From an uncultured Clostridium sp. (GTDB taxonomy: Bacteria; Bacillota; Clostridia; TANB77; CAG-508): 64,000 nt of DNA. Under the pieces are notes generated by a model. That model did not search any database. It saw only the letters and a program-made list of their open reading frames with translations, and had not been told where the DNA came from. Positions 19,058 to 37,606 of this stretch are shown here, piece after piece. The DNA lies in contig CATZPY010000003.1 in the NCBI GenBank assembly GCA_958422985.1, positions 21,671 through 85,670 of the forward strand, written 5' to 3'. Position 1 is the stretch's first letter. Each line of letters begins with the position of its first letter. A program made the position numbers and the translations under genes.

Positions 19058-20846
19058 CTCCAACAGGTAGCACTTTTACTAATACACCTTCTTTAGTTTT
19101 TTCCAAAATAGATCCGGTGTCTAAATTAATATAAGTTTTATGAATTTGCTTGTCTTTTGGCGATTGCTTTAAATGCGCAGGTGGACAATTTTCATCAGAT
19201 AAAAATCTAAGATGTCCAACAGTATCTTGATTATATGCTTTATTATTTTTTGAACATTGTTTAATTGTTTTTTTACTTTTCTTGTTCCATGGCATCATTA
19301 CATGGGACTTCATTTTTCTATCATTTCGCATATTCCAATCATTAGAGCCAGCATATATAGGTACAATTGGGCTTTTAAAATATTCGGTTGCAAACTCTGA
19401 AAAAATATGCGATGGAACATGTACATTAACAGGTAATATAGAATTAATATCTACCACAAAATCTGTAAAATGTTTTAACTCTCCAGAAGTTCCATCTTCA
19501 GAAATTTTATCTACTACAACACCATAGTTTCTTTTTTGGCTATTATTTAATTCTAAAAAACTATAAAGAGATAATGCTATATGAGCTTTAGAACCTTTTA
19601 ATCTGTGAATAGAATTAGCAAACTGTGAAAATCTTAACATATCGTCTCCAACAGAATTTCTAGAAGCAGGGAAAACATTAGAAAAGTATTGCTTATATTC
19701 TTCACCATAAGATTTTTCCATTTCTTTTTCTAAAGGTTCTAAAGAATAATATCTTCTTTCAGAATTTTCATCATCATCTAGAACTAATTCACCACTACGT
19801 GACATTTCTTCTATTTTATTTTCATTTTCTGTATAATACATTTCTGTTGGATAATAAAAAAGTTCCATTTTTAATAAGATGTTTTTTAAATCTTCATCTT
19901 CTAATGTTGGTGCTTCTGTACCATCTAGAATAAGAGGTTCTAAATTAAATTCGGAAATCGCATACATTGCTTTAGAATAGTCCTCTAAGATATGAAAAGC
20001 CCTATTAGTATACATTATGTTTATACCGAGTAAGTCTACTGTATCTAGTTGTTTTTGAACTCCCTCAGATAGTCCACTAGTTAAACTTGCTTTATCTTGC
20101 TTTAATTCCGGAAGTCCAATTTCATCAAATTGTTTATTTGCAAGTGCTAGCCAGTCATCTAAATAACCCATGTCATCGAAAAGACTAACTAGTGCTGTAT
20201 TAGACTCTATTAAATCTTTCTTTATATTTGTTTCAGTATATTTTAAATAAGTTTTCATATATGCAGGAATTCCGTCTGCTAATAGTTCAAAAGCATCTAG
20301 ATAATGTTTCCTTTGTAGTGCAGGTAAATGACCTACAAGTTTTTCAGCCATTATATGTTTTTCTTTATTAGTTTTTGTAGAATTTAAAATATCTGAGAAC
20401 ACAGGTCCATAACTATCTTCTACTTGTGAAGCTACTTGTGGATATAAATGCCTCATAAATAATACTAAATTTGTTAAATTTTCATCAAAACTATTAGTAT
20501 GCATAAAAAAATCCCTGTCTGACGAGATATTATTACTTTCTACATATTCTGTAATTTCAGTATATTTCCTAGGATTTTGAAGTAAGTATAAACAAGCATT
20601 ATATGCTGTAACTTGGTTTAATATATGTTCATTACAAAAAGAAACTGTTTTTAGCCTAGAGTTATAATCGTATAATAAAGAATAAAAATCTGGATCTTTC
20701 ATATCTGGATTTTTAAGTTTTTCTTTTTGAATAAAATCGTAAATTTTACTAATAGTGTTATTAATATATCTATATTCGAATGGTTTAACATTAGAAACCA
20801 TTTCTTCTGCTCTACTTATAGCAGATTTAAAAGCCATAAAATGCAT
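19035..20846 (-). CDS. Hypothetical protein, 603 aa, no recognisable family
   Basis: It is a long uninterrupted ORF with an AGGAGG-type RBS (AAGGAGGATTACTT before the ATG). It is on the opposite strand to all neighbours. I recognise no catalytic motif. Confidence 0.6.
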   Translation of the reverse strand: MHFMAFKSAISRAEEMVSNVKPFEYRYINNTISKIYDFIQKEKLKNPDMKDPDFYSLLYDYNSRLKTVSFCNEHILNQVTAYNACLYLLQNPRKYTEITEYVESNNISSDRDFFMHTNSFDENLTNLVLFMRHLYPQVASQVEDSYGPVFSDILNSTKTNKEKHIMAEKLVGHLPALQRKHYLDAFELLADGIPAYMKTYLKYTETNIKKDLIESNTALVSLFDDMGYLDDWLALANKQFDEIGLPELKQDKASLTSGLSEGVQKQLDTVDLLGINIMYTNRAFHILEDYSKAMYAISEFNLEPLILDGTEAPTLEDEDLKNILLKMELFYYPTEMYYTENENKIEEMSRSGELVLDDDENSERRYYSLEPLEKEMEKSYGEEYKQYFSNVFPASRNSVGDDMLRFSQFANSIHRLKGSKAHIALSLYSFLELNNSQKRNYGVVVDKISEDGTSGELKHFTDFVVDINSILPVNVHVPSHIFSEFATEYFKSPIVPIYAGSNDWNMRNDRKMKSHVMMPWNKKSKKTIKQCSKNNKAYNQDTVGHLRFLSDENCPPAHLKQSPKDKQIHKTYINLDTGSILEKTKEGVLVKVLPVGDDERDGR

Positions 20847-22442: not shown

Positions 22443-24965
22443 ATGAAGAGTAAAAAATTAAAGAATCAAGAAGAGGAAGAGTTTGTGCCTAAAGCTTTTA
22501 AAAAAGAAAAAAGTAATGGAACACAAGAAAATAAGAAAAATAGAAGAGGCAAAACGAATAAAAATAAAAAAGTAAAGAAAATCATAATTTCCCTAATAGT
22601 TTTATTAATAATAGTTATAGGTATTGCTCTTGCAACATCTGCAGTAAAATGGAGAAATATTGCAGAAGATATGCTAATTAATGAAAATTCTATTGTACTT
22701 GATAATAATGGTAATGAGCTTGCCAAATTAGGAAGTGAAAGAAAACAAATAAAAATTGATATTTCACAGATGCCAGCAAATTTAAAAAATGCTTATGTTG
22801 CAATAGAAGATGAAAGGTTTTATAAGCACCAAGGTGTAGATATAAAAAGAACCGGTTCTGCTATATTAAGTTATATTTTTCACTTTGGCAATTCTTCTTA
22901 TGGTGGAAGTACAATTACACAGCAATTGGTAAAGAACATGACTGGAGATACCACAGATAGTATATTTAGAAAAGTGAAAGAATGGTGGAAAGCTTGGAAC
23001 TTGGAATGTATAACTGAAAAAGATGAAATATTAGAAACATATTTAAATATTATATATGTTGGTCCGAGTATATATGGTGTAGAAGCCGGAAGTGAATATT
23101 ATTTTAACAAACCTTGTAAGAACTTAAATTTAGAAGAATGTGCTTTTTTAGCCGGAATAAATCATTCACCAAATTCTTATAATCCATTTGGAGAGAAAGA
23201 TAATTCAGAGAAAATAAAGAAGAGGACGAAAACAGTTTTATCCAAAATGTTAGAACTTGGTTATATTCACGAAGAGGAATATGAAATTGCTACAAAGAAT
23301 GTAGATGAAGGTATTAAATTTAAAAAGGGCACTATTAATTCAGGGAATGGAGTATATTCATATCATACAGATGCACTTATAACAGATGTTACAAATGATA
23401 TAGCAGATAAGTATAATATTTCTACTAATTTTGCTACTAATTATATATATATGTCGGGTTTAACAATTACAAGTACACAAGAAACTAAAATTCAAGACCA
23501 AATGGAAACAGAAATGGGAAAGAGCAAATACATACTGCAGTCAAAAAATGGAGGAGAGCATTCACAATCTGCTATGGTTATAATAGATCATAAAACAGGA
23601 AATGTGTTAGGTTGTGTAGGAGGTCTTGGAAAAAAAGACAAGCCACGTTCTTTAAATAGAGCAACTCAAAGTATTAGGCAAACAGGTTCTGCTATAAAAC
23701 CAATTGCTGTAGTAGGTCCTGCTATCCAAAAGAAGCTAATTACTGCTTCGTCAATATATGACGATACAGAAAGAGATTTTAGTGGTGGGTATCACCCAGT
23801 AGATTATAGTAAACCTTTAGGTAATATAACAGTAAGAAGAGCTATAGAATCTTCACAAAATATTCCATTTGTAGAAATTATGAATGAATTAAAACCTAAT
23901 GTTGCTATAAAGTATTTAGAAAAAATGGGTATTACTACTCTAACAGAAGAGGACAATAACTTAACTTTGGCATTGGGGGGATTGCAAAAAGGAATTAGCC
24001 CCTTAGAAATGGCTTCTGCTTATGCAACAATTGCAAATGATGGTGAATATATAGAACCTACATTTTATAAAGAAATAAAAAGCAATGCTGGGAAGACAAT
24101 AATGAAACCAAAGCCGAAAAAAGAAAGAGTTTTTTCTAAGGAAACAGCTTTTATACTAAAAGATCTACTAACACAGCCAGTAGAAGGAAAAAATGGAACA
24201 GCTACATACTGCAAAATAAATGGAATTGATGTTGCAGCTAAAACTGGAACAACAGATTCTAATTATGACAGATGGCTCTGTGGTTTTACACCATATTATA
24301 CAGGTGTTACATGGTATGGCTATGACCAAAATGAAACAGTTAATTTTAATAAGAGAAATCCTGCAGGTTTAATTTGGGCTAATGTAATGTCAAGAATACA
24401 TACTGGTTTAAAAACAGCATATTTTATTAAGCCATATTCTGTACAAGAAGTTAAAGTTTGTTCAGAAACTGGACTAAAAGCAAGAACTGGTTGTAAAGAT
24501 ACATATACAGAGTATTTTTTAAGATCTACAGTTCCTGGCTTATGTAACAAACATAGTGGAACAGAGATAAAAGCTTCAGAAACAGAACATAAAAATGAAA
24601 ACACAAATTCTACAGTTCAAGGAATTAAAAACGATATAGATGCAGAAGAACCTGTAATGAATACAAATGTCGTAACAACTGATAATAAAAAAGAAAATAT
24701 GACAGATACAAATACAAACAAGAATACAAATACTAACACGAATACAAATAGCAATATTAATTCAAATAAGAATACTAACTCTAATACAAATACAAATGCA
24801 AACACTAATACAAATACTAATTTGAATACAAATACAAATTCTAACAGCAACAAAAATAATACAAATAGTAATATAAACACAAATACCAATACTAACTCAA
24901 ATACAAACACTAATTCGAACAGCAGTACAAATACACAACCAGGAACAAATACAGCAGATGATTAA
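22443..24965 (+). CDS. Class A penicillin-binding protein (bifunctional transglycosylase/transpeptidase) with Asn/Thr-rich C-terminal tail
   Basis: GT51 motifs are present: EDERFYKHQGVD, GGSTITQQLVKN, RKVKEWW and KDEILETYLN. Transpeptidase motifs are SAIK (TGSAIKP), SQN and KTGT. The last roughly 80 codons are NT(N/S) low-complexity sequence. Confidence 0.9.
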   Translation: MKSKKLKNQEEEEFVPKAFKKEKSNGTQENKKNRRGKTNKNKKVKKIIISLIVLLIIVIGIALATSAVKWRNIAEDMLINENSIVLDNNGNELAKLGSERKQIKIDISQMPANLKNAYVAIEDERFYKHQGVDIKRTGSAILSYIFHFGNSSYGGSTITQQLVKNMTGDTTDSIFRKVKEWWKAWNLECITEKDEILETYLNIIYVGPSIYGVEAGSEYYFNKPCKNLNLEECAFLAGINHSPNSYNPFGEKDNSEKIKKRTKTVLSKMLELGYIHEEEYEIATKNVDEGIKFKKGTINSGNGVYSYHTDALITDVTNDIADKYNISTNFATNYIYMSGLTITSTQETKIQDQMETEMGKSKYILQSKNGGEHSQSAMVIIDHKTGNVLGCVGGLGKKDKPRSLNRATQSIRQTGSAIKPIAVVGPAIQKKLITASSIYDDTERDFSGGYHPVDYSKPLGNITVRRAIESSQNIPFVEIMNELKPNVAIKYLEKMGITTLTEEDNNLTLALGGLQKGISPLEMASAYATIANDGEYIEPTFYKEIKSNAGKTIMKPKPKKERVFSKETAFILKDLLTQPVEGKNGTATYCKINGIDVAAKTGTTDSNYDRWLCGFTPYYTGVTWYGYDQNETVNFNKRNPAGLIWANVMSRIHTGLKTAYFIKPYSVQEVKVCSETGLKARTGCKDTYTEYFLRSTVPGLCNKHSGTEIKASETEHKNENTNSTVQGIKNDIDAEEPVMNTNVVTTDNKKENMTDTNTNKNTNTNTNTNSNINSNKNTNSNTNTNANTNTNTNLNTNTNSNSNKNNTNSNINTNTNTNSNTNTNSNSSTNTQPGTNTADD
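24705..24935 (+). repeat. Imperfect tandem AAT-ACA/AAC-type codon repeats encoding the (N-T/S)n tail of the PBP
   Basis: The translation is DTNTNKNTNTNTNTNSNINSNKNTNSNTNTNANTNTNTNLNTNTNSNSNKNNTNSNINTNTNTNSNTNTNSNSSTNT. The nucleotide sequence is a degenerate 6-nt periodic repeat. Confidence 0.8.
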
Positions 24966-25012
24966 AAGCATATTTAAGATTATATCCGCAATATAAATAA
25001 TAATTTAATAGT

Positions 25013-25060
25013 AAAAAGAGCAATACTTTATTACATAAATGTAGTGAAATTGCTCTTTTT
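25013..25060 (+). terminator. Rho-independent terminator after the PBP gene
   Basis: AAAAAGAGCAAT ... ATTGCTCTTTTT is a perfect 12-bp stem that includes the T-run. Confidence 0.7.
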
Positions 25061-25074
25061 ATTATTAGAAAAGT

Positions 25075-25113
25075 AAAACCGAGATTTTAAGGACCTTTTC
25101 TAAATCCCAGTTT
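25075..25113 (+). repeat. Dispersed hairpin repeat family 1 (copy B)
   Basis: The sequence is AAAACCGAGATTTTAAGGACCTTTTCTAAATCCCAGTTT. Confidence 0.6.
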
Positions 25114-25161
25114 ATAGCTCTTATCCTTTCTCGCTGTAAGAGCGACACCATCATGCATAAA

Positions 25162-25190
25162 TTGACAATAATAGATTTAAATGGTATAAT
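25162..25190 (+). promoter_or_regulatory. Consensus sigma-A-type promoter of the glycan operon
   Basis: TTGACA (25162-25167), a 17-nt spacer, then TATAAT (25185-25190), about 40 nt upstream of the first ORF. Confidence 0.55.
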
Positions 25191-25233
25191 AGAACGTGAT
25201 AATGCAAAAAGATATGAATAAAAGAGAGTGATT

Positions 25234-26208
25234 ATGAGCGAACAATATATTTATATAGGTAATGCGTCAAAAAATGGCATAAACAAGTATCGTTTTTCGA
25301 ATGAAAACTTAAATTTAGTCTATACAACTAATGATTTTGAAAGATGTACATATTTAGCACAAAATGAAAATCATTTATATGCAGTACAAGAAAATGAGAA
25401 TGGTAATATATTAGCATATAAAAAAACTTCCAAAGGTTTAACATATATTGGGAATAAAAGCTCATTAGGAAGTGGCCCATGTCATGTAGAAATAAGTAAC
25501 AAGAAGAAAATGCTATTTATTTCGAATTATATGAATGGGTATTTTACTGCATATAAAATTAAGGAAAGTGGCGAAATAGGAGAGCTTATTTATAATAACG
25601 TAAACCGTAGTAAATATTCGCATTTACATTGTGCAAAAGTTTTTAATAATGAAAACAACTTAATAACTGTAGACTTGGGCATGAATATATTAGATTTATA
25701 CGAAGTGCAAAAAAAATCTTTAAAAAAGATTTTTTCACTTCAATTTCCCAAAGACGAAGAGCCAAGACATATAGCTATTTATAATGAAAAAATTTTTTTA
25801 TTAACTGAAAAAGGTTGTACATTATATGTTTTAAGATATATACAAAAAAAATTAGAAATCCTATATAAAACAAGTATTTTACCTAATAATCACGCAAAAA
25901 AAGAAAACGATACAGGAGCAGGAATTAAGATTTCTTCAGATGGCAAATATATTTACACATCTATAAGAGGACATAATAGCATATCTGTATTTAAATATGA
26001 AAATAAAAAATTAGAATTAGTACAAAATATTTTATCCTATGGCGATACTCCCAGAGATTTAGAAATTGACAAAACACAGAAATATGTATTTGTTGCGAAC
26101 CAAGATTCTAATGAAATTGCAATTTTTAGTAGAGATATTAATACTGGTAAATTGGAATTTTTAAATAAGCAGAAATCACCTTTGCCAACATGTGTACTGT
26201 CAGAATAG
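25234..26208 (+). CDS. 7-bladed beta-propeller lactonase-like protein (6-phosphogluconolactonase/YbhE family)
   Basis: Repeated blade-like segments and the C-terminal PRDLEIDKTQKYVFVANQDSNEIAIFSRD resemble the PF10282 lactonase family. The assignment is from memory. Confidence 0.55.
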   Translation: MSEQYIYIGNASKNGINKYRFSNENLNLVYTTNDFERCTYLAQNENHLYAVQENENGNILAYKKTSKGLTYIGNKSSLGSGPCHVEISNKKKMLFISNYMNGYFTAYKIKESGEIGELIYNNVNRSKYSHLHCAKVFNNENNLITVDLGMNILDLYEVQKKSLKKIFSLQFPKDEEPRHIAIYNEKIFLLTEKGCTLYVLRYIQKKLEILYKTSILPNNHAKKENDTGAGIKISSDGKYIYTSIRGHNSISVFKYENKKLELVQNILSYGDTPRDLEIDKTQKYVFVANQDSNEIAIFSRDINTGKLEFLNKQKSPLPTCVLSE

Positions 26209-26217
26209 GGGGCATAT

Positions 26218-27405
26218 ATGAAAAAGAAGCTGTTAATAGCAGTTCATACTCTTCAATTAGGAGGAGTAGAAAAAATAGTAATTAATCTTTTAAAAATGAT
26301 GGATAAAGAAAAATATGATATAACATTATTATCACTAGTAAATGATGGTGTTTTTGTGGAAGATGCACTAAACATACCAGGAATAAAATATAAGTATTTT
26401 TTTGAAAGCTATTTTAAAAAAAGCAGAAATGACATAAATTCAAAGCATTATAAAATATCTTGTAAATTAATGAGTATAATTTGGAAATGGTATTTATTTT
26501 TAATAAAACATTTTCCAAATTATTTGTATAAAAAGAATATAAAGGAAGTATACGACATAGAAATTGCTTTTCTAGAAGGGAAAGTTGCAAAAGTTATAGC
26601 TAATTCTAATAATAAAAATTCTAAAAAAATTGCATGGATACATACAGATATAGAAAATATTTCGCGAGCTAGTATATTTAAAAATTTAGATGATGAAATA
26701 AATTGCTATAAAAGATTTGACAAAATTGTTTGTGTTTCTAATGATGTAAAATATCATTTTACACAAAAAACAGGAATTTCAGACAATGTAATTGTACAGG
26801 TAAACCCAATAAATTCTGAAGAAATATTAAAAAAAGCCAAAGAGCCAATAACAAAAGACTTAAAGAAAAATGGAATTATAATATCTGCAGTTGGAAGATT
26901 AGCATATGAAAAAGGCTATGACAGATTATTAAAAATCCATAGAAAATTGTTAAGAGAAAACATAAAAAACTCTATATGGATAATTGGAGAAGGTACAGAA
27001 AGAGAAAATTTAGAAAACTACATAGAAGAAAATAATTTAAAAGATACAGTTAATTTAGTAGGATATACCGAAAATCCTTATAAATATGTTAAAGAATCTG
27101 ATATATTTGTATGTTCTTCTAGAATAGAAGGATTAAGTTCTGTTGTAATAGAAGCAGCTATGTTAGACAAGCCAATAGTTACAACATTATGTTCCGGAAT
27201 GAAGGATATTCTAGGAGAAGATAATGAAAATGCACTTATAGTGTCTAATGATACATACAATTTATATTTGGGAGTTAAAAAAGTAATATTAAACAAGGAA
27301 CTTAGAGAAAAATATAAAGAAAATATAAAAAATGTTACACGAAAATTTGATATGAATACAGTTATATCAAATATAGATAAATTACTTGAAAGTTTGGAGA
27401 GTTAA
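26218..27405 (+). CDS. GT-B fold glycosyltransferase (family 4/1-like)
   Basis: The C-terminal half carries VGRLAYEKGYDRLL and the EX7E-type region SSRIEGLSSVVIEAAMLDKPIV. Confidence 0.8.
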   Translation: MKKKLLIAVHTLQLGGVEKIVINLLKMMDKEKYDITLLSLVNDGVFVEDALNIPGIKYKYFFESYFKKSRNDINSKHYKISCKLMSIIWKWYLFLIKHFPNYLYKKNIKEVYDIEIAFLEGKVAKVIANSNNKNSKKIAWIHTDIENISRASIFKNLDDEINCYKRFDKIVCVSNDVKYHFTQKTGISDNVIVQVNPINSEEILKKAKEPITKDLKKNGIIISAVGRLAYEKGYDRLLKIHRKLLRENIKNSIWIIGEGTERENLENYIEENNLKDTVNLVGYTENPYKYVKESDIFVCSSRIEGLSSVVIEAAMLDKPIVTTLCSGMKDILGEDNENALIVSNDTYNLYLGVKKVILNKELREKYKENIKNVTRKFDMNTVISNIDKLLESLES

Positions 27406-27406
27406 A

Positions 27407-28288
27407 ATGATACAAATTGGTTGTAATTATATTGTTAATGAAGATGGCAAAAATATTTATGACGACTTATATAAAAATTTAATAAAAAATAATTATATAG
27501 ATATTTTAAAGTTTCCAGGTAGATTTTGTAATAGTGAAGAACTTAATAACTGCTTGAAACTAGCAAAAGAAAATAATATAAAAGTAGATTTTCATGGTTT
27601 ACCACATATGGAACCTAGAACACATAGTAAAAGAATGATTAAGAATATAGACTGGCATAGCTTGCCAGCCAATTTAATGCAATTAAATAATAAAAAACGT
27701 ATTAGTACACATATAGCAGCAGAAATTAACGAGAATATAGATGAGGCTAAAGAGATATTATTTGAAAATATAAATAGCTTAAAAACTCAATTTTTAAAAT
27801 TATATAATGAAGAAATTAAGTTTGGAGGGGAAAATCAACCCGGAGGTTACGGTATTCCATTAGCAGAGATTTCTCCTAAAACTATAAGTTATATGTGGGA
27901 AATATTAGATTTTGGAGTATTCGATATTTCACATGCAAAACTTGCAGCAAATGATTTAAATATTTCGTATAATAACTATTTAGATTTATTAACAAATAAA
28001 GACAAAGTTAAGATTTTGCATATTTCTGGAAATGTAGACAATACAGGTGAATTTAAAAATAAACTAGATAAACATCTTATGATGGATAAAACAGAAATAA
28101 AAGATATTATTTATACTATTAAAAACTTTAAAAATCTTGACTTAATAATATCTGAGCTTGCTTTTAATTCAAGATATAGTTTTGAAAAGGAACTAAAAAT
28201 AGAAATGCAAACATTAAAAATGATAGCAGAAACACTAGATGTGGAAGAATGTATAAATTTACATGAAAGTTTGTGCAAAGAAAATTAA
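27407..28288 (+). CDS. TIM-barrel protein with a DUF692/MNIO-like (MbnB/TglH-type) motif pattern; alternatively a xylose-isomerase-like sugar isomerase/epimerase
   Basis: The ordered motifs are MIQIGCNY, VDFHGL, RISTHIA, GGENQPG, VFDISHA, ILHISGN, LDKHL and IISELA. They parallel the DUF692 order G-x-N/R, HG, S-x-H, EN, D-x-x-N/H, H-x-x-G, D-x-H, E as I recall it from MbnB. The start ATG lies 1 nt after the GT4 stop and follows GGAGAG. Confidence 0.45.
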   Translation: MIQIGCNYIVNEDGKNIYDDLYKNLIKNNYIDILKFPGRFCNSEELNNCLKLAKENNIKVDFHGLPHMEPRTHSKRMIKNIDWHSLPANLMQLNNKKRISTHIAAEINENIDEAKEILFENINSLKTQFLKLYNEEIKFGGENQPGGYGIPLAEISPKTISYMWEILDFGVFDISHAKLAANDLNISYNNYLDLLTNKDKVKILHISGNVDNTGEFKNKLDKHLMMDKTEIKDIIYTIKNFKNLDLIISELAFNSRYSFEKELKIEMQTLKMIAETLDVEECINLHESLCKEN

Positions 28289-28304
28289 AAATAGAGGTGA
28301 TTAT

Positions 28305-29039
28305 ATGAAAGATACTGTTATTGTAATTACAGGTGGACATGGGGGAATAGGTAGAGTAGTAGTTTCTAATTTTTTAAAACAAGGTGCTAAAGTAGTAGTT
28401 TTAGATAAAGATGATACTACATCTAAAGCTATTCTAGAAAATGAAAATTACACTTTTATAAAAACTGATGTTACTAAAATAGAAGAGCTTCAAAATGCTC
28501 ATAAAATAATAGAAAACAAATATGGCTATATTAATTATTTAATAAGTATGGCAGGAATTAACATGAAAAGTGAAATAGATGGAATTAGAGGAATAACCTT
28601 TAATGACATAGATAAGTCTATAAGCTTAAATTTAACAGCACATATATACCTTATAAAAATAATGCTAGACTTAATAGAAAAGTCTAAAGATATTTCTAAA
28701 AGAGCTATTTTAATGATATCTTCTATAAATGCAATAACTAGATATGGTTTGCCAGCATATAGTGCTGCGAAATCTGGAATATATGGTTTTATGAAATCTA
28801 TTTTAAATGAACTAGGAACTTCTAATATAAGGGTAAACACAATTTCATTAGGAACTGTGCCACATATGGAACAAGAAATAGAAGGTGATGAATATTTTGA
28901 AAATTATAAGAATCATTTGCCTATTAAAAGTTTTGTTAGACCAACAGATGTTTATGATGCAATTTATTCTTTATTAGAAATAGCTAAAGGTGTTAATGGA
29001 CAAAACCTAGTTCTAGATATGGGACAAAGTTTAAGATAA
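28305..29039 (+). CDS. Short-chain dehydrogenase/reductase (SDR)
   Basis: It has the cofactor motif ITGGHGGIGR, and the catalytic S (MISSINA) and YSAAK. Confidence 0.85.
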   Translation: MKDTVIVITGGHGGIGRVVVSNFLKQGAKVVVLDKDDTTSKAILENENYTFIKTDVTKIEELQNAHKIIENKYGYINYLISMAGINMKSEIDGIRGITFNDIDKSISLNLTAHIYLIKIMLDLIEKSKDISKRAILMISSINAITRYGLPAYSAAKSGIYGFMKSILNELGTSNIRVNTISLGTVPHMEQEIEGDEYFENYKNHLPIKSFVRPTDVYDAIYSLLEIAKGVNGQNLVLDMGQSLR

Positions 29040-29051
29040 AGGAGATTAATT

Positions 29052-29876
29052 ATGGCAAATATTTCTGTTATTATACCAGTATATAATGCACAAAATACCA
29101 TAGAAAAAACAATAAACTCTGTATTAAAGAGTAAGGAAGATATAGAACTTATTCTTGTAATAGATGGATTAAGTGATAATTCGCTAAATATATGCGAAGA
29201 AATGAAGAAAAAAGATAGCAGAATAAAAATAATCGTTCAAGAAAATAAAGGAGCATTATGTGCTAGAATAAATGGAATTAAAAGTGCAACTGGAAAGTAT
29301 GTAATGTTTCTAGATGCAGATGATGAATATATAGATGGTGTTTTTAGCAAAATGAATGAAATTATAAATAAATATTCACCAGACTTAATTAAATTTAGAT
29401 ATAAAAAAGAGAATTATGAACAATATAAATATTTTAGTGAAAACGAAATATTTATTAATAAAAAAGACTTTAGCGAAAAAGTATATCCTATGTTTTTTGA
29501 AGGATATCAATTAAATGCTATATGGAATAGCTGTGTAAAGAAATCTTGTTTAGATAGTATAAGTGCCCCAAACCAAAGACTAAGATATGCTGAAGATTTA
29601 ATGATGAATTTAAATATATTTACAAATATAAATTCAGCAGTATTTCTAAACGATATTTACTATTTTTATAACACAAATTCAAGTAGTATTACACAATCTA
29701 GAAAAAGTAGTAAAAAATGGCTAGAAATATTGCAAAATGCTGTAGATGTATATTCTTCATTATTCTCTTATCTTAATATTTGGAATATGTATACAGCTAC
29801 AAATGTAAAACTTGTACAAGAACGACTAGCAAAAGAAGTCAATATAATTATAAATATATTAAATACAATGAATTAA
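29052..29876 (+). CDS. Family 2 glycosyltransferase
   Basis: GT2 signatures are ISVIIPVYNAQNTIEKTINSVL, LILVIDGLSDNS and FLDADDE. Confidence 0.8.
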   Translation: MANISVIIPVYNAQNTIEKTINSVLKSKEDIELILVIDGLSDNSLNICEEMKKKDSRIKIIVQENKGALCARINGIKSATGKYVMFLDADDEYIDGVFSKMNEIINKYSPDLIKFRYKKENYEQYKYFSENEIFINKKDFSEKVYPMFFEGYQLNAIWNSCVKKSCLDSISAPNQRLRYAEDLMMNLNIFTNINSAVFLNDIYYFYNTNSSSITQSRKSSKKWLEILQNAVDVYSSLFSYLNIWNMYTATNVKLVQERLAKEVNIIINILNTMN

Positions 29877-29895
29877 AATTTCATTGTATTTTTTT
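29862..29895 (+). terminator. Rho-independent terminator overlapping the GT2 stop codon
   Basis: AATACAATGAA-TTAAAAT-TTCATTGTATT is a perfect 11-bp stem followed by T5. Confidence 0.65.
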
Positions 29896-29946
29896 ATAGT
29901 AGGAAGTTGCTCCTAGTAGGAGAAACTTCTGTACTAGATAATTATG

Positions 29947-30008
29947 ACGTACCTTAGATTTTCTTAGAATTTACATTTGTTAGAAAATCTTAGGTACGTT
30001 TTTTTTTA
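29947..30008 (+). terminator. Second long hairpin with T-run; a copy of dispersed repeat family 2
   Basis: ACGTACCTTAGATTTTCT ... AGAAAATCTTAGGTACGT is an 18-bp stem with one mismatch, followed by T9. Confidence 0.65.
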
Positions 30009-30015
30009 TTTACTC

Positions 30016-30066
30016 TTGCATAAAAACAAATGTTCTGATATAATTTTTAAAAGCGAACAAACATTC
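30016..30066 (+). promoter_or_regulatory. Promoter (TTGCAT-17-TATAAT) overlapped by two LexA (Cheo)-box-like sites
   Basis: The -35 is at 30016-30021 and the -10 at 30039-30044. Box 1, AAAC-AAAT-GTTC (30024-30035), lies inside the spacer. Box 2, (C)GAAC-AAAC-ATTC (30055-30066), lies at the predicted transcription start. The Gram-positive consensus is GAAC-N4-GTTC. Confidence 0.5.
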
Positions 30067-30088
30067 TAGTACGTAAGGAGGAAAAAAT

Positions 30089-30358
30089 ATGAAATCGAAA
30101 AGGGGACTAATTATAATAATTTTTATAGTAATAATTGCATTTGCAAAGACTAGCTACTCTAAACAAGAAGTTAATTACAAGGTTACAATTATAGACTTTG
30201 GCGAAACACTATGGTCAATAGCGAAAAAAGAACAGGAAACAAATAAATATTATGAGGGGAAAGATATAAGATTTGTAATAAACGATATAAAGTACAACAA
30301 TAATTTAAAAGATTCTAATTTATATGAGGGAATGGAATTAAAAATACCTTCTATGTAG
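30089..30358 (+). CDS. yneA: Small membrane-anchored LysM protein, YneA-like (candidate SOS cell-division inhibitor)
   Basis: It is 89 aa with an N-terminal TM helix (LIIIIFIVIIAFA) and a LysM domain (YKVTIIDFGETLWSIAKKE...LYEGMELKIPS). This is the same architecture as B. subtilis YneA. The RBS is AAGGAGG. Confidence 0.5.
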   Translation: MKSKRGLIIIIFIVIIAFAKTSYSKQEVNYKVTIIDFGETLWSIAKKEQETNKYYEGKDIRFVINDIKYNNNLKDSNLYEGMELKIPSM

Positions 30359-30497
30359 CATAATTTTATATAATAATTAATCGATTTACTTGAAAATATA
30401 AAGTATGAATTATATAATTTTATAAAATAATAAAAGTAAAAATCTTTAGCAATCAATAAGTAAAAAATAGTATTTAAGGAGTTAAGTATTATAATAA

Positions 30498-31571
30498 ATG
30501 AAAAGATATTCAAATACATCATTAATAAAATTTATAGTCAACAAAATTAAACACTTAAAACCCAAAGTAATAATATTATTACTTTTACTAATTATTATAT
30601 TTTCAGTTATAATTAGTCTTATATTAGTAAACAATTCAAAACAAAAATGGGTTACTTACGCAGGAAATAATCTAAATGAAAATAGATATCCTGGCTATAA
30701 AGAAGCTATAGATAAATTAAAAAAAGAACATCCAAACTGGGAGTTTACGCTTTTCTATACAAAATTAGATTGGAAAGATGTGATAAAAAATGAAAGTCAC
30801 TCTAATAAAAATATGCCTTTAAATTTAGTACCAAAATCAGATAAATATGGTAAAGATTGGCAATGTAAAAAAGATAAAGGAAAAACATACGATAATGGAA
30901 ATTGGCTATGTGCCTCAAGTAAAGCAATAGAATATAAAATGGACCCAAGGATCTTGTTAAATGAAAATGATATATTTCAATTAAAAGACTTACAATATGC
31001 AGAAAATTCTACAACCAAGGAAGGAATAATGAAAAAAACGAAAAATACTTTTTTAGAAGGTAGTAGTATTGCAGAAGCAATTTTAAAATCTGGGAAAGAT
31101 AATAATATAGACCCATATTTTATTGTTTCTAGGCTGATACAAGAACAAGGTAAAAAAGGAACTAAATTGTCTAGAGGATATAAATATAAAGATAAAATAG
31201 TATATAATCCATTTAATATAGCAGCTTCAGGAAATTTGCAGTCAACAATTATAAATAATGCAGCAGAATATGCATATTCGAACGAATGGTTTTCGCTAGA
31301 AAAAGCTTTATTAGAAGGAGTAAATTTTATTAATACAAAATATATTAATGAAAAGCAAAGCACATTATATTTGCAAAAATTCGATATAATAAAAGAAAAT
31401 ACATTATATAATAATCAATATATGCAAAATTTATTGGCACCAACATCTGAAAGCCAAATTTTAATAGAACAATATGAAAACTCTAATACATTAGATTCTA
31501 ATTTTAACTTTATAATTCCATTATACGAAAATATGCCAAAAAACTTAACAAAAGAACCAAAAGGAGAATAA
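30498..31571 (+). CDS. Membrane-anchored glucosaminidase-domain peptidoglycan hydrolase-like protein
   Basis: It has an N-terminal TM helix. The region NIDPYFIVSRLIQEQGKKGTKLSRGY...YNPFNI resembles the mannosyl-glycoprotein endo-beta-N-acetylglucosaminidase (LytD/FlgJ) catalytic region. Confidence 0.5.
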   Translation: MKRYSNTSLIKFIVNKIKHLKPKVIILLLLLIIIFSVIISLILVNNSKQKWVTYAGNNLNENRYPGYKEAIDKLKKEHPNWEFTLFYTKLDWKDVIKNESHSNKNMPLNLVPKSDKYGKDWQCKKDKGKTYDNGNWLCASSKAIEYKMDPRILLNENDIFQLKDLQYAENSTTKEGIMKKTKNTFLEGSSIAEAILKSGKDNNIDPYFIVSRLIQEQGKKGTKLSRGYKYKDKIVYNPFNIAASGNLQSTIINNAAEYAYSNEWFSLEKALLEGVNFINTKYINEKQSTLYLQKFDIIKENTLYNNQYMQNLLAPTSESQILIEQYENSNTLDSNFNFIIPLYENMPKNLTKEPKGE

Positions 31572-31573
31572 TT

Positions 31574-32206
31574 ATGAGTTCAATAATTAGTCATATTTAT
31601 ATATCTAATATACTAAAAGAAAAATATAATTTAAATAATGAATTTTTATATGGAGCTATGTTACCAGATGTATTAACTGTAGCAGTTAATTTTAAAACAA
31701 AGAATACAACACATTATTTGCAACATGGTATATTAAATGAAAATGAAGGTGATTATCCAGACATAGAAAAATTTATAAATGAAAATAAGTTATCTTTACC
31801 AAAAAACTTAATGCTACAAGGATATTTAGCTCATTTAATAGAAGACATGATATGGTATAGTATTTCTATTCCTAATATGGCAATAAAAAGAGATGATAAA
31901 ATTGTATTATATACTAAAGATAATTCTATTCATTCAGAAGAAGAATTTTCGAAAGATATATATTCAGATTATCCCATTATAGATAGATATCTTTTAAAGA
32001 ATTCTAACATTAATATTAGCGAATTACAAAATGAATTTTTAGAAATATCGGATGATGAAGGTCTAAAGAAAGCAATTAAAGAAAATTTTAAACTATTTGA
32101 TTTAAGAAATAATAAATTAAATTTAGTTACAGAAGATATTTTAAAATATTATATAGAAACTTCTTTAGAAAAAGTCAGCTTGGTTTTAGACAAAATATAT
32201 AAATAA
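31574..32206 (+). CDS. Hypothetical protein, paralog of 6696..7214 (possible PLC-like zinc hydrolase fold)
   Basis: It shows the same motif order as its paralog: H(7), MLPD, THY, GYLAHLIED. The start lies 2 nt after the upstream stop. Confidence 0.35.
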   Translation: MSSIISHIYISNILKEKYNLNNEFLYGAMLPDVLTVAVNFKTKNTTHYLQHGILNENEGDYPDIEKFINENKLSLPKNLMLQGYLAHLIEDMIWYSISIPNMAIKRDDKIVLYTKDNSIHSEEEFSKDIYSDYPIIDRYLLKNSNINISELQNEFLEISDDEGLKKAIKENFKLFDLRNNKLNLVTEDILKYYIETSLEKVSLVLDKIYK

Positions 32207-32226
32207 AAAGGAAAAGGAGAATAAAG

Positions 32227-33201
32227 ATGTGTACATGTATAGACTTTAAAACAAAAGATAATTATTTTGGTAGGAATTTAGATTTAGAGTATAGGTTTAA
32301 TGAAAAAGTAGTTATAACACCAAGAAACTATAAATTTAATTTAAAAAATGGTACTTCTATAACTTCAAAATATTCTATGATAGGAATGGCAACAGTAGTT
32401 AGTAATTATCCTTTGTATGCAGAAGCAACAAATGAAAAAGGACTATCTATGGCAGGATTATATTTTCCTAAAAATGCTTGCTTTTTTAAAGAGGAAGATA
32501 ATAAATTAAATTTAACCCCATATGAACTTATACCATATTTTTTAGGTTTATATTCATCTATATCAGAAATTAAAAAAGACATTACAAATCTAAATATCAC
32601 CGATACTCCTTTTTCAAAAGAAATGCCAGTATCGGACTTACATTGGATGATAAGTGATGAAAGTGAATGTATTGTTATCGAACAAATGGAAGATGGATTA
32701 AAAGTGTACAATAATCCAATAGGTGTACTTACTAATAATCCACCTTTTGACTACCATTTAAATAATATTAATAATTATAGTAATTTAAGCCCATATAATA
32801 GTAAAAATACATTTTCGAATAAAATTAATTTAAATCAATACGGACAAGGTATGGGTGCAATAGGTTTGCCAGGCGATAACTCACCTGCTTCAAGATTTAT
32901 AAGAGCCTCTTTTAATAAACTAAATTCTAAATGCAAAGATGATGAAAAAAGTTCTGTAACACAATTTTTTCATATATTAGATTCTGTAAGCATGGTACAA
33001 GGTACAACCATAACTAAAGAAAATAAAAACGATATTACCACATATTCGTGTTGTATAAATACATCTAAAGGTATATATTATTATAAAACATATACTAACA
33101 ATCAAATAATTGCAATAAAGATGTCTGAAAAAGAAAAAAATAATAAGGATTTATCAATTTTTGATTTAATAGAAGAACAGCAAATAAAATATATTAATTA
33201 A
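32227..33201 (+). CDS. Choloylglycine (bile salt) hydrolase family Ntn hydrolase
   Basis: It has the MCT N-terminus (Cys2 nucleophile), FGRNLD, HWMISD, GVLTNNPPFDYH and GLPGDNSPASRFIR. It strongly resembles Clostridium perfringens CBAH as I recall it. Confidence 0.85.
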   Translation: MCTCIDFKTKDNYFGRNLDLEYRFNEKVVITPRNYKFNLKNGTSITSKYSMIGMATVVSNYPLYAEATNEKGLSMAGLYFPKNACFFKEEDNKLNLTPYELIPYFLGLYSSISEIKKDITNLNITDTPFSKEMPVSDLHWMISDESECIVIEQMEDGLKVYNNPIGVLTNNPPFDYHLNNINNYSNLSPYNSKNTFSNKINLNQYGQGMGAIGLPGDNSPASRFIRASFNKLNSKCKDDEKSSVTQFFHILDSVSMVQGTTITKENKNDITTYSCCINTSKGIYYYKTYTNNQIIAIKMSEKEKNNKDLSIFDLIEEQQIKYIN

Positions 33202-33219
33202 AATATGGAGGAAAGATAT

Positions 33220-34200
33220 ATGCAATTTGATAGAATTTTATTATCTTCTTGCACCAAAATAAAAGATGAAGGAGAGCTATCAGGGAACTTTACATCTGTA
33301 ATTGGTGAATATTTTATTCCTAACGAAAATAAAACAGGTTTTTATAAAACAAATGCTGGTATTAAGAGCACTGCAGATTTAAGAGAACTATTAGCATCTA
33401 TATTATTACAAGAAATAAAAATACCAGTTTCAGATATCCTACTTGCTTATGATGACGAACATAATGAAAAAGGATGTATTTCTATGAATATTTTAAATGA
33501 AGGCGAACAATTTTTAGAAATATTTCCATATCCCTATGATGAGATTCCACAGAATTTAAGAGAATTTAATTTAGATAATTTTATAGAATCAGATTTATAT
33601 GTTTATAAATTAAAATATAATTTCACACCAGAACTAATTCAAGAAAGAAGAGATTTTTTAGTTAACTATGTTTTTATATCAGCCTTTTTAGGAAATGATG
33701 ATATAAAAACAGATAATTGCCAAGCAATATTTAACAAAAGAAATGGTAGCATAAGAAACCCTGAATATTATGATATGGGAAAAGCATTTCAAGAAAAGTC
33801 TGTTAATGGAACTTCGAGAAAATTTTTTCAGAATCAAACAGATATAGACGTATTAAAAGAAATTTATGAAAATTATCCAGACAAAATAAGAGATGTTTCA
33901 GAAAAGATTGAAAAATCTTTGGATAAAAAATTCATACAAAATGTATTAGATAATGAGGTTTTTAAAGAATTTGATGGAGAAACACGAAAAGAAATTTGGC
34001 AAAGTATGGGAGAGAAGATAACATATATTTCAAAACAAAATGAATTATTGTATGATATGCATCACGCAAATGACTCATTCATAATTCCTTTAGATTCTAT
34101 AGAAGAACTAACACAAAAAACAGATATTGTGCTAGTTGATAAAGCAAAGAAATTCTTACATTCATTAAGGCAGAAAGTATTGGGAGGAGCTGAAAGATAA
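33220..34200 (+). CDS. HipA_C-like (protein-kinase-fold) protein
   Basis: FLVNYVFISAFLGNDDIKTDNCQAIF...IRNPEYYDMGKAF matches the HipA catalytic-loop pattern hhGNxDxxxxNhxhh...xPxYDxxxx. The start is placed 8 nt after GGAGG. Confidence 0.45.
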   Translation: MQFDRILLSSCTKIKDEGELSGNFTSVIGEYFIPNENKTGFYKTNAGIKSTADLRELLASILLQEIKIPVSDILLAYDDEHNEKGCISMNILNEGEQFLEIFPYPYDEIPQNLREFNLDNFIESDLYVYKLKYNFTPELIQERRDFLVNYVFISAFLGNDDIKTDNCQAIFNKRNGSIRNPEYYDMGKAFQEKSVNGTSRKFFQNQTDIDVLKEIYENYPDKIRDVSEKIEKSLDKKFIQNVLDNEVFKEFDGETRKEIWQSMGEKITYISKQNELLYDMHHANDSFIIPLDSIEELTQKTDIVLVDKAKKFLHSLRQKVLGGAER

Positions 34201-34667
34201 TGGTAAATACAACAAATATAGATTATGCAAAATCTTGTACAGAAATACTTGCTATAATATATAATATGTCTATAGAAAACTTTAATAAAGTACCTCCCGA
34301 AGTTATAAAATCTTTAGAAGAAAACAAAGATCCTAATTACAATTTTAAATTAGACTATAGTAAGGACATAAATGAACAGAATATTTCTGAATTCGCGATA
34401 GCAATGCTTAAAAATGTGTATAGAGATTATTGGGCTACAGAAAATACAAGACAAAAAATATTATTTGATGAAGCAAACAGAAGATATGAAAAGGAAAAAA
34501 TTAGACGTGAACTATATAATCCAGATAATATTTTTAAAACCATGAGTAAAACTAATAATAGAAAGGAAACGACAACCGCAATTGTTCCTGCTAAAGAAGA
34601 GAATATATTAAAAAGGCTATTAAGAAAGCTAAAAAGCAATATATGGAGGAAAACAAGTGAAAAATAA
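34200..34667 (+). CDS. Hypothetical protein (155 aa), translationally coupled to the HipA-like gene
   Basis: There is a TAATG stop/start overlap. The protein is basic and helical with no recognised motif. Confidence 0.5.
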   Translation: MVNTTNIDYAKSCTEILAIIYNMSIENFNKVPPEVIKSLEENKDPNYNFKLDYSKDINEQNISEFAIAMLKNVYRDYWATENTRQKILFDEANRRYEKEKIRRELYNPDNIFKTMSKTNNRKETTTAIVPAKEENILKRLLRKLKSNIWRKTSEK

Positions 34668-35463
34668 AAATAAAATAATAATCGTAATAATATCCATTAT
34701 ATTTGTTGCGATTACAGGATGTACTATATACGAAATTACTACAAGGGATAACAAGTATTATATAAGCGAAAAAAAACTAGAAATTCCTATTTTTGTATAT
34801 CATAATATTGTAGATGACGAATCACAAGTGTATTATGATTATATGCAAACTACTAAGGAGACATTTGAAGACCAGATTAAAGGTTTAAAAAGTATTGGAT
34901 ATCATTTTATAACTTATGAAGATTTAAAAGCATATAAAGAAGGAAAAAAGGAATTGTATAAGCGATCATGTATATTAACTTTTGATGATGGCTATGAAGA
35001 AGTTTATAAAAATGCTTATCCAATAGCAACTAAATATAATATTCCATTTACAATGTTTATCATAACAAATAATGTTGGAACACCTGGTACAATTACTTGG
35101 AATGAAGCAAAAGAGATGAAAGAAAGTGGCTTAGTAACAATTGCTTCACATAGTGAAGACCACGCAAATTTTAATAAACTAACAGTTATGGATGCAGTAA
35201 ATAATGTAAACAATTCTTATAATAATATAGAAAAGAATTTATCTACTGAGAGCACTAAGATTTTTACATATCCATATGGCTTATATACAGAAGAAGAAAT
35301 AAATGAATTAACTAATTTGGGATATATTCAAAATTTAACAGATAATAGGATTAATACAAGTGAAAATTTAGATTTATCTAGGCTACATAGGTGCTATCCT
35401 TTAAGTGATTCTACCTACAAAATTCTTCTTAAAATAATGTATAGAAATTTAAGATATAACTAA
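34657..35463 (+). CDS. Membrane-anchored polysaccharide (peptidoglycan) deacetylase, NodB/CE4 family
   Basis: It has an N-terminal TM helix, TFDDGYEEVY (the Asp-Asp motif), and HSEDHANF (the His-His motif). The GTG start overlaps the preceding ORF by 11 nt. Confidence 0.8.
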   Translation: MKNKNKIIIVIISIIFVAITGCTIYEITTRDNKYYISEKKLEIPIFVYHNIVDDESQVYYDYMQTTKETFEDQIKGLKSIGYHFITYEDLKAYKEGKKELYKRSCILTFDDGYEEVYKNAYPIATKYNIPFTMFIITNNVGTPGTITWNEAKEMKESGLVTIASHSEDHANFNKLTVMDAVNNVNNSYNNIEKNLSTESTKIFTYPYGLYTEEEINELTNLGYIQNLTDNRINTSENLDLSRLHRCYPLSDSTYKILLKIMYRNLRYN

Positions 35464-35652: not shown

Positions 35653-36183
35653 ATGAAAAAAATAACAAAGCATGGAAAAAAAAGATTGAAACAAAGAAAT
35701 AAAAATCAATGTCGTAATGGAATAGCTAATATTGCAAAAAAGTGTGGAAAAACCAAAAGATATTTTGAAGGAGAATTTTATGAATATTTATTAACGAAAT
35801 CCTCAAGAGATTGCACAGTTAAAGTATATAAAAACGATATTTACATTTATGCTAGGACTTCTAAAAAGCTTATTACAACATATCCTGTACCAAAAAAATT
35901 TATCCCGACAGAACAATATTTACTTGAAAAAGAAAAAAGATATGTAATTGAAAATATAGTAAAATATTTAAACAAAAATGTTATAATAACATTAAAAAAT
36001 GGTGAAAAAATACAAGGAATTATAATTGACAAAACTAAAAATAACTTACTGCAAATTTGTGAAGTAATACTAAAAGTAAATGAGCAAAGTATAGTTTTAG
36101 AAGTAGATAACATAGAAAAAATAGAATTGGACTATGATATATTTAACAAAGAAATTATGCAAGCAATGGGAATATCTGCTTAA
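35653..36183 (+). CDS. Hypothetical protein; the N-terminal ITKHGKKRLKQR motif is reminiscent of DUF4258-type small toxin domains, and the C-terminal half looks Sm/beta-barrel-like
   Basis: The start is placed at the ATG after GGAGATGG. The family assignment is a weak guess from a HAxxRxxxR-like motif. Confidence 0.4.
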   Translation: MKKITKHGKKRLKQRNKNQCRNGIANIAKKCGKTKRYFEGEFYEYLLTKSSRDCTVKVYKNDIYIYARTSKKLITTYPVPKKFIPTEQYLLEKEKRYVIENIVKYLNKNVIITLKNGEKIQGIIIDKTKNNLLQICEVILKVNEQSIVLEVDNIEKIELDYDIFNKEIMQAMGISA

Positions 36184-36786
36184 TCAAAAGATAAATTATT
36201 TAAATCTTTAAAGGACTATGAGGTGTTTATCACGGTGGAGTAGGGGGATAGTGCATTTTTCAATATTGTCAAATTTGATTAAAAACTTTTGTGCAAAGTA
36301 AAAATAATATCAGAAATTTAAAATTGAATTTTCAAAATTAGAATTTATAAAAAAATAAATTTGAAAAAATTTTATAGAAAACAAATTTATATAATTATAA
36401 TAAAAATTTTAATTACGAACATTAAAATTCTAAAAACCGAACAATTGTTATTTGATGTTTTTTTACAAATTTAATGTTATATATTTTATACAATAATTAT
36501 TGTTATTAAACTCAAAATGGATTTTTAGTAATTTTGATTATAAATATGTAATATGTGTGTATTTAAAATATAAAAACTAATCTTATCGATTTTAAGAGTT
36601 GTATTAAAAAATATTGACCTCTCAAAATCGTTTTTAAGCTGTTTTAATTTTTAAGCTAATAAATTGCTCATTTAAAATATAACTAATTATTTAAAGTTTA
36701 GAATTTTTGCGGTTTGGCTATTAAAAATATATTTTTTGCAGATAATTTATCTATATATAAAAATGCTAAAAAAGTGCTAAAAAAGC

Positions 36787-37582: not shown

Positions 37583-37583
37583 T

Positions 37584-37606
37584 GACGCACGAGAATCGAT
37601 TTTAAG
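37584..37606 (+). repeat. 23-bp direct repeat, copy 2
   Basis: It is a perfect match to 36787..36809, 797 bp downstream. Confidence 0.85.

Follow-up and report, generated by a model that had tools for sequence, protein, structure and literature searches.

A divergent DUF692-related TIM-barrel protein coupled to a GT4 glycosyltransferase gene in uncultured gut Clostridia, with a probable carbohydrate substrate

The subject of this study is the 293-amino-acid product, here named X, of a gene at positions 27407 to 28288 (forward strand) of a 64,000-nucleotide stretch of DNA from an uncultured Clostridium sp. (GCA_958422985.1, contig CATZPY010000003.1, positions 21,671 to 85,670 of the forward strand). 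This whole stretch is referred to as the window. X is the first example of a divergent and so far unannotated branch of the TIM barrels that are related to DUF692, the family of the multinuclear nonheme iron oxidases (MNIOs), and resemble endonuclease IV. X always adjoins a sugar-transferring enzyme in gut Clostridia, and its substrate is therefore probably a carbohydrate and not a peptide. We see an even chance that X is a carbohydrate-linked enzyme of the DUF692 superfamily that acts in a cell envelope glycoconjugate route through redox-neutral rather than O2-dependent chemistry. Its substrate class, metal identity, chemistry, and envelope destination are what we infer here.

The translation of the X gene consists of 293 open codons followed by a stop. 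The longest mechanical open reading frame (ORF) begins at TTG 27386. ATG 27407 was taken as the right start because the homologues, all 41 in the alignment, open with MI.IG.NY and because this ATG lies one base past the stop codon of the upstream gene, which encodes a glycosyltransferase of family 4 (GT4). An earlier reading of the DNA, the first-pass annotation, had described a 293-amino-acid ORF with eight motifs in a fixed order, and all eight are present in the translation: MIQIGCNY (residues 1 to 8), VDFHGL (60 to 65), RISTHIA (98 to 104), GGENQPG (140 to 146), VFDISHA (171 to 177), ILHISGN (203 to 209), LDKHL (220 to 224), and IISELA (247 to 252). The parallel that it had drawn with the DUF692 protein MbnB was also borne out, as the MbnB sequence shows CAFHIM, YISDHIG, LLLENY, LLFDISNA, HFHIAG, VDTHS, and SVERD. 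Across the 41 homologues (43 to 96% identity), the residues D61, H63, S100, H102, E142, N143, D173, H176, H205, D221, K222, H223, and E250 are invariant. With these 13 functional-looking residues invariant, the motifs are beyond chance. K35, C41, R98, and K178 are, like K222, invariant or nearly so. X is conserved, and purifying selection acts on it. The G+C content of the DNA is about 26% throughout.

The X family is small and phylogenetically narrow. In a collection of 5.8 billion proteins, 49 clusters of X homologues were found (E values of 1e-182 to 2e-32), none of which is named. From 1.84 billion representatives at 50% identity, the family profile retrieved no more than 93 proteins at E ≤ 1e-3, of which 16 reached E ≤ 1e-30. 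All 21 loci, taken from GTDB species genomes, belong to gut metagenome-assembled genomes (MAGs) labelled uncultured Clostridia or Clostridium, and the hosts sampled were human, chicken, rabbit, goat, and mouse.

Searches of X against Pfam, NCBIfam, and PDB sequences returned only noise at E ≤ 10, and X had no match to PF05114, the DUF692 signature, at that threshold. The X family profile likewise matched nothing among PDB sequences. When the 41 family members were scanned singly, 8 matched PF05114 (best E value, 2.4e-7) and 4 matched PF01261 (best E value, 0.0088); four members carry a precomputed PF05114 mark. The profile of the family alignment (A1) was used to collect 59 full-length distant matches (A2), 55 of which are PF05114 proteins and 8 of which also match PF01261; the 45 bona fide PF05114 proteins among them formed a third alignment (A3). 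Alignment of A1 with A3 by hhalign gave a probability of 99.9 and an E value of 1.2e-34 over 236 columns. The A2 profile matched TglH (1.2e-21), the H. somnus DUF692 structure 3BWW (2.6e-19), MbnB (2e-16), and endonuclease IV (1.5e-3) among PDB sequences. Together, the member scans, the distant matches, the hhalign comparison, and the A2 profile place X, at the level of sequence, on a divergent side branch of the DUF692 lineage, outside the sugar epimerase part of the fold. The relationship between X and PF05114 is one of superfamily level, as the profile-profile comparison shows. The earlier assignment as a DUF692/MNIO protein was thus correct as to lineage but not as to membership by signature, since X itself is not recognized by PF05114. 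The choice between the two signatures, which had been left to profile searches, fell to PF05114, and sugar isomerase families were not favored.

Alignments of A1 with A2 and of A2 with PDB sequences were used to map the candidate metal ligands of X onto the published Fe ligands of MbnB (PMC9060507) and TglH (PMC10880893). The positions that correspond to Fe1 are H63 (MbnB H54, TglH H71) and H102 (H90, H107), and that of the Fe1/Fe2 bridge is E142 (E133, E151). Fe2 is matched by D173 (D163, D184; a bridge to Fe3 in TglH), H205 (H192, H216), and E250 (E239, E258), and Fe3 by H176 (N166, N187), D221 (D208, D229), and H223 (H210, H231). Eight of the nine positions are identical to those of MbnB and TglH, and the ninth has His176 in place of Asn. 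The six positions of the catalytic Fe1/Fe2 pair are all invariant in the 41 sequences, as are the third-site residues D221 and H223 and the histidine at the Asn position. This Asn is highly conserved among MbnB homologues (PMC9060507). The three Zn ions of AsfvAP, the endonuclease IV homologue of African swine fever virus (ASFV), are bound by H78, H115, E142, D179, H182, D231, H233, and E271 (PMC7076025), and the pattern His, His, Glu, Asp-x-x-His, His, Asp-x-His, Glu of X agrees with that listing. X is accordingly best described as a protein predicted to keep a complete two- or three-metal ligand set in a His-containing, endonuclease IV-like variant. The one-to-one line-up with MbnB proposed earlier held for eight positions and failed at the Asn position, where X has His176; a His can coordinate metal, and in endonuclease IV it does so. 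By conservation and by alignment to MbnB and TglH, the multinuclear set, whose lack had been named as speaking against the proposal, is complete.

The AlphaFold2 model of X, built from the 41-sequence alignment, is a (beta/alpha)8 barrel with a mean pLDDT (predicted local distance difference test score) of 95.5 and a pTM (predicted template modeling score) of 0.93. The nine ligand positions lie at or just past the C-terminal ends of the barrel strands. When the model was compared with the PDB by Foldseek, sugar epimerases were on top, among them 8xiv, 3vnk, and the D-tagatose 3-epimerase-like 3wqo (E value, 8.8e-8), which we take to be MJ1311. TglH 8hi7 (2.7e-6), the ASFV endonuclease IV homologue 6ki3 at rank 8 (3.9e-6), MbnB 7tcw (7.5e-6), and 3bww (1.6e-4) were also matched, and YcjR 6wn6 was at rank 32. 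The template modeling (TM) scores of the matches were 0.5 to 0.67, and when normalized by target length they were highest for the DUF692 structures 3bww (0.67) and MbnB (0.65). The comparison bore out the TIM-barrel fold.

The Foldseek ranking bears on the possibility that X is a mononuclear epimerase or isomerase of the xylose isomerase fold, of the D-tagatose/D-psicose 3-epimerase type, which would use a Glu-Asp-His-Glu tetrad only; a sugar epimerase or isomerase was the conservative alternative of the first-pass annotation. E142, D173, H205, and E250 reproduce this tetrad of sugar epimerases and isomerases, and the short-chain dehydrogenase/reductase (SDR) gene that follows X recalls the dehydrogenase/epimerase pair YcjS/YcjR. 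The epimerases also have a His three residues after the tetrad Asp. We nevertheless regard this explanation as distinctly unlikely. PF01261 was matched by so few members, and at E values of 0.0088 or worse, that PF05114 is clearly the better signature; the distant profile matches stood at 55 to 8 in favor of PF05114; and the target-normalized TM scores favored the DUF692 structures. Moreover, the additional invariant residues H63, H102, D221, and H223 are, in MNIOs and in endonuclease IV, ligands of the first and third sites. To our knowledge, the epimerases have neither the first-site His pair nor the third-site Asp-x-His, and equivalents of these four residues are not needed by them.

The GT4 gene lies directly upstream of X in 20 of 20 orthologous loci. 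The two genes stay adjacent even where identity falls to 43% for X and to 53% for GT4, and in loci L017 and L018 this arrangement was kept although no other neighbor was shared, indicating that the link survives a complete turnover of the surroundings. A GT2 glycosyltransferase gene is part of the module in about 15 of 17 informative loci, the SDR gene follows X in about 12 of 18, and in about 13 of 18 a lactonase-type propeller gene immediately precedes GT4; GT4, GT2, SDR, and lactonase are the only neighbors conserved across the 20 loci. GT4 and X are the minimal conserved unit. The module also recurs beside genes of cell wall synthesis. It follows a PBP1A gene in the window and in 8 fetched loci, it stands immediately ahead of a murE/F-type Mur ligase gene, mraY, ftsW, and murG in L016 and L020, it lies between FtsW-like and FtsI-like genes in L010, and in L018 the dcw genes murG, ftsW, and mraY are within 5 to 10 kb of it. 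An X paralogue with 32% identity and with the ligand motifs kept was observed at L021:6816-7670, in the same MAG as L011; it has no GT4 and lies directly downstream of a gene for a 774-amino-acid FtsI-like penicillin-binding protein.

The fixed GT4 coupling is the reason for rejecting a role of X in DNA repair. X shows the ligand pattern of endonuclease IV at nine positions, and the rank of AsfvAP in the Foldseek search is in keeping with an endonuclease IV-type repair nuclease that stands among glycosyltransferase genes by chance. However, a strict GT4 adjacency with apparent translational coupling in every one of the 20 loci would not be expected for a repair gene, the X family profile found no endonuclease IV in the PDB, and the E value of the A2 profile for endonuclease IV was 18 orders of magnitude poorer than that for TglH. 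We consider this explanation extremely improbable.

Almost all of the PF05114 proteins nearest to X share its third-site histidine. The sequence D-x-x-H was found in 58 of the 59 distant matches and the canonical D-x-x-N in one. These His-type relatives (for example, P0077, P0087, P0109, and P0143) come from Clostridia and from bacteria of the candidate phyla radiation (CPR), and their database names are only "DUF692 family protein," "hypothetical," and "xylose isomerase-like TIM barrel." Three representatives (from Parcubacteria, Doudnabacteria, and a third sample) are encoded in the order SDR, NeuB, X-like protein, GNAT, and CMP-sugar-type cytidylyltransferase. The reading frames of the NeuB clusters overlap or abut, and the X-like genes are located at L032:5001-5777, L033:5001-5771, L034:4480-5250, and L038:5001-5765; in the third cluster (L038) an unannotated minus-strand ORF takes the place of GNAT. 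The clusters are flanked by genes for DegT and class-III aminotransferases, GT2, GT4, a Gfo/Idh/MocA oxidoreductase, and a hexose dehydratase. All three representatives have a D-x-x-H-A motif and are detected by the A1 profile. Judged by their gene content, the CPR clusters with SDR, NeuB, and the X-like protein represent a pathway of the nonulosonic acid type and not one for a ribosomally synthesized and posttranslationally modified peptide (RiPP). The relative P0087 adjoins a large membrane protein and a divergent polysaccharide locus with GT4 and epimerase genes. The intermediate relatives P0061, P0064, P0069, P0071, and P0074 are on short contigs or in uninformative contexts. The carbohydrate context that the first-pass annotation had proposed for X is reinforced both by the constant GT4 adjacency and by the occurrence of relatives in NeuB sugar clusters. 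A specific kinship of the window SDR and GT4 to their counterparts in the CPR NeuB cluster was also considered and was rejected, the similarity being generic (26% identity) or absent.

P0077, from Clostridia, was observed after three genes (L022:1-5962 and L024:2-3805). They encode a protein of the Glu/Gln-tRNA synthetase family, a fusion of a radical-SAM (MoaA-like) protein with a 2-hydroxyacid dehydrogenase domain, and a fusion of a NodU/TobZ-type carbamoyltransferase with an HD domain. This unusual gene set may belong to another non-RiPP pathway.

Known MNIO systems usually include a partner protein and a precursor peptide, and the first-pass annotation had seen neither a partner nor a Cys-rich short ORF near X. 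The same result was obtained for the window neighborhood and for the 21 loci. No DUF2063-, MbnC-, or TglI-like protein and no RRE-type partner was found by Pfam among the ORFs of at least 100 amino acids at 16141 to 39139 or in the 89-amino-acid LysM ORF, and clustering of small ORFs (15 to 120 amino acids) within 1.5 kb of the module in the 21 loci yielded no conserved ones, only alternate-frame shadows of large genes. In the contexts of the relatives that were read, there was no DUF2063-type partner or obvious precursor. These data weigh on the alternative that X is a peptide- or protein-modifying MNIO whose substrate is encoded elsewhere or is nonribosomal, such as a serine-rich surface protein or the peptidoglycan stem peptide; GT4 and GT2 may then glycosylate the same molecule, and GT4 may substitute for the usual partner. 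The known MNIOs all act on peptides or proteins, and some function without a DUF2063 partner (PMC12452194). In addition, GT4 and GT2 have a weak likeness to protein O-glycosyltransferases, and the module and the X paralogue recur beside peptidoglycan synthesis genes. Nevertheless, the absence of any conserved small ORF, Cys-rich ORF, or partner from the 21 loci, and the presence of His-type relatives in nonulosonic acid-type clusters that have neither a candidate precursor ORF nor a DUF2063-type partner, make this explanation quite improbable.

In the mechanism that we favor, X would most likely work with GT4 by tailoring a sugar intermediate, which may be a sugar phosphate, a nucleotide sugar, or a nascent glycoside. 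GT4 and GT2 would then incorporate the tailored intermediate into a cell envelope glycoconjugate. The reaction of X would be redox neutral and metal assisted, being either phosphoester hydrolysis, as in endonuclease IV, or aldose/ketose isomerization or epimerization, as in the wider xylose isomerase fold. Redox-neutral chemistry is favored because the hosts are gut Clostridia, because some relatives are from CPR bacteria, and because the ligand set equals that of a hydrolase. O2-dependent oxidation was ranked below it; the carriers of X are all gut Clostridia MAGs and some His-type relatives belong to CPR bacteria, which makes O2-dependent oxidase chemistry doubtful.

X might, however, be a true MNIO oxidase that uses a mixed-valent di- or tri-iron center and O2 to oxidize a sugar, a polyol, or a glycolipid, in line with the MNIO in a carbohydrate or lipid context that the first-pass annotation had put forward. 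The substrate oxygen might be bound to iron, as the Cys thiolate is in MbnB and TglH, and the product, a uronic or aldonic acid or a lactone, might then be processed by the lactonase-like propeller and the SDR. Such an activity would fit the finding that the closest detectable relatives are PF05114 proteins, the invariance in X of all Fe1 and Fe2 ligands of MbnB and TglH, the carbohydrate context without a peptide, and the lactonase family gene at the head of the operon in most loci. It would not fit the gut Clostridia hosts and the CPR origin of some relatives, for which an O2-dependent biosynthetic step is unexpected, the replacement of the conserved MbnB Asn by His, which gives the endonuclease IV pattern, or the absence of the lactonase and SDR genes from several loci that retain GT4 and X. 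On balance we consider an oxidase of this kind rather unlikely. The wider proposal that X and the His-type PF05114 branch are the first MNIO superfamily enzymes with a carbohydrate substrate, in which multi-iron and O2-dependent oxidation of a sugar or glycolipid would serve envelope glycan synthesis, is unlikely.

Several points weigh against the preferred assignment of X to redox-neutral carbohydrate chemistry. The characterized PF05114 enzymes are without exception oxidases that modify peptides and depend on iron and O2 (PMC12452194, PMC12257519). The Foldseek scores did not separate sugar epimerases, MNIOs, and endonuclease IV. The His-type PF05114 proteins P0077, P0085, and P0149 are found in uninformative, housekeeping-like contexts. 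The synteny counts are not independent, as many loci are related by descent, and gene adjacency is no proof of a shared pathway. Finally, the anaerobic lifestyle of the hosts is deduced from taxonomy and habitat.

In the window, X appears from its reading frames and predicted signals to be part of a bounded operon of five closely spaced genes (propeller, GT4, X, SDR, and GT2) with one promoter and two terminators (Table 1). All four neighbors named in the first-pass annotation (GT4, SDR, GT2, and the lactonase-like propeller) were identified by Pfam. The promoter is the sole 12/12 consensus match at 24800 to 30600 and is intergenic, 38 nucleotides ahead of the first gene of the operon. Less perfect matches were no more frequent in this AT-rich region than in shuffled sequences. 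The scores of the NCBIfam 6-phosphogluconolactonase models on the propeller were far under the cutoffs. The best NCBIfam match of GT4 was PglJ (1.6e-34), which was also under its cutoff, and its PDB matches were TarM and the glycosyltransferase domain of Cps3D. GT2 matched GalT1 (5hea) and the "Glycosyl transferase" entries 5tze and 5tz8, presumably Staphylococcus aureus TarS. Both glycosyltransferases are weakly similar to protein O-glycosyltransferases (the SdgA/SdgB and GtfA models and GalT1 5hea). The longest ORF of the SDR begins at 28263, the PF00106 domain begins at residue 19 of this ORF, and homologues cover only 94% of it; its likely start is ATG 28305, behind a putative GAGGTG Shine-Dalgarno sequence. 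No transmembrane or hydrophobic segment was found in any of the five operon products, and the pathway would therefore be cytoplasmic or located at the inner face of the membrane.

Table 1. Features of the operon that contains X and of its borders (positions in the window)
Feature	Position	Strand	Evidence or remark
PBP1A ORF	22443-24965	+	ORF and Pfam listing
Hairpin and T-run at the end of the upstream PBP1A gene, left edge of the operon	25013..25063	+	RNAfold of 24966-25100: long perfect stem, then TTTTTATT
Putative sigma-70-type promoter: TTGACA, 17-nt spacer, TATAAT, extended -10 TG	25162..25190	+	Consensus match only
Operon gene 1, lactonase-type 7-bladed beta-propeller (6-phosphogluconolactonase-like)	25228..26208	+	PF10282, E 1.8e-68
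Operon gene 2, GT4 glycosyltransferase	26218..27405	+	PF00534, E 1e-30
X, DUF692/MNIO-related TIM-barrel protein, 293 aa	27407..28288	+	Nine invariant metal-ligand positions
Operon gene 4, classical SDR	28305..29039 (start likely)	+	PF00106, E 1.5e-33
Last operon gene, GT2 glycosyltransferase	29052..29876	+	PF00535, E 3.2e-30
Predicted intrinsic terminator closing the operon, long hairpin and T9	29946..30007	+	RNAfold of 29877-30020, -42.3 kcal/mol; stem GACGTACCTTAGATTTTC...GAAAATCTTAGGTACG, then TTTTTTTTT

Downstream of the operon, at 30089 to 35463, the window carries a series of genes related to the envelope and the gut. It begins with those for a small membrane protein with LysM, a SagB-like glucosaminidase that has a transmembrane segment at its N terminus, and a weakly matched Zn-phospholipase C-like protein, and these three are retained with the operon in the closer loci. 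A choloylglycine (bile salt) hydrolase, two proteins of unknown type, and a polysaccharide deacetylase are encoded next. The minus-strand gene at 19035 to 20846, upstream of mnmA, encodes a protein of about 602 to 603 amino acids without a Pfam or NCBIfam match, which has 70 to 97% identity to its counterparts in the closest loci; its kinship to the 609-amino-acid unknown protein beside P0087 was considered and rejected, as there was no match. A region of about 1.56 kb (36183 to 37748) has no ORF longer than 63 amino acids and lies upstream of a gene for a class II tRNA synthetase of the Asp/Asn/Lys type. Rfam and tRNA scans of the window, this region included, found nothing. The cumulative GC skew of the window (1 to 64000) rises to about 40 kb and then falls, and the genes are nearly all on the plus strand before 39139 and on the minus strand after 39319. 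The interval between them looks like a convergence point of the replication terminus type.

Surveys of MNIOs gather their members by the PF05114 signature and then seek precursors and partners (PMC12452194, PMC12257519). The X family is invisible to this signature, and the terms Clostridia, Bacillota, and glycosyl are unmentioned in the text of one survey (PMC12452194). The MNIOs (PF05114), which number about 13,500 entries in UniProt, are at present regarded solely as oxidases that modify peptides. No earlier description emerged from literature searches on DUF692/MNIO proteins in connection with glycosyltransferases, the cell wall, nonulosonic acid, or nonpeptide substrates. X has a known fold and a known metal site, but its genomic role, the branch of His-type proteins, and the fixed coupling to GT4 are undescribed. 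If the carbohydrate link is true, a part of the DUF692 superfamily performs carbohydrate chemistry, and the annotation and mining of such genes would change. It would also allow a test of how a single trinuclear site of His and carboxylate ligands is adapted to hydrolysis (endonuclease IV), isomerization (xylose isomerase fold), or O2 activation (MNIO). The operon itself is an uncharacterized five-gene glycosylation operon beside cell wall synthesis genes in low-GC gut Clostridia, a group that is widespread and uncultured.

X can be compared with four groups of known proteins. The D-tagatose/D-psicose (D-allulose) 3-epimerases and 3wqo gave the best Foldseek E values (8.8e-8 to 1e-5) and are like X in the tetrad and in the carbohydrate context, but they are mononuclear, whereas X carries what appears to be a multimetal ligand set. 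Endonuclease IV (Escherichia coli Nfo and ASFV AsfvAP, both within PF01261) has the fold and the three-Zn ligand pattern in common with X; its sequence kinship to X is far weaker than that of PF05114, and the context of X is not DNA related. The MNIOs MbnB, TglH, ChrH, and 3BWW share the TIM barrel (TM scores of 0.58 to 0.67 to 8hi7, 7tcw, and 3bww), a homology detectable via intermediate sequences, and eight ligands in the same order (H, H, E, D, H, D, H, E). They differ from X in the third-site Asn (MbnB N166, TglH N187), which is His176 in X, and in having an MbnC/TglI/DUF2063 partner and a precursor peptide, whereas the X locus is without both, is fixed beside GT4, and is found in gut Clostridia. 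The nearest recognizable relatives of X are the His-type PF05114 proteins. Unlike X, they match PF05114, are shorter (about 255 to 285 amino acids), have no GT4 pairing, and in some cases are without the Asp of D-x-H. They nevertheless have the same third-site His and, in the contexts read, no RiPP partner, and three of them are encoded in SDR-NeuB-X-cytidylyltransferase clusters and one beside a polysaccharide locus.

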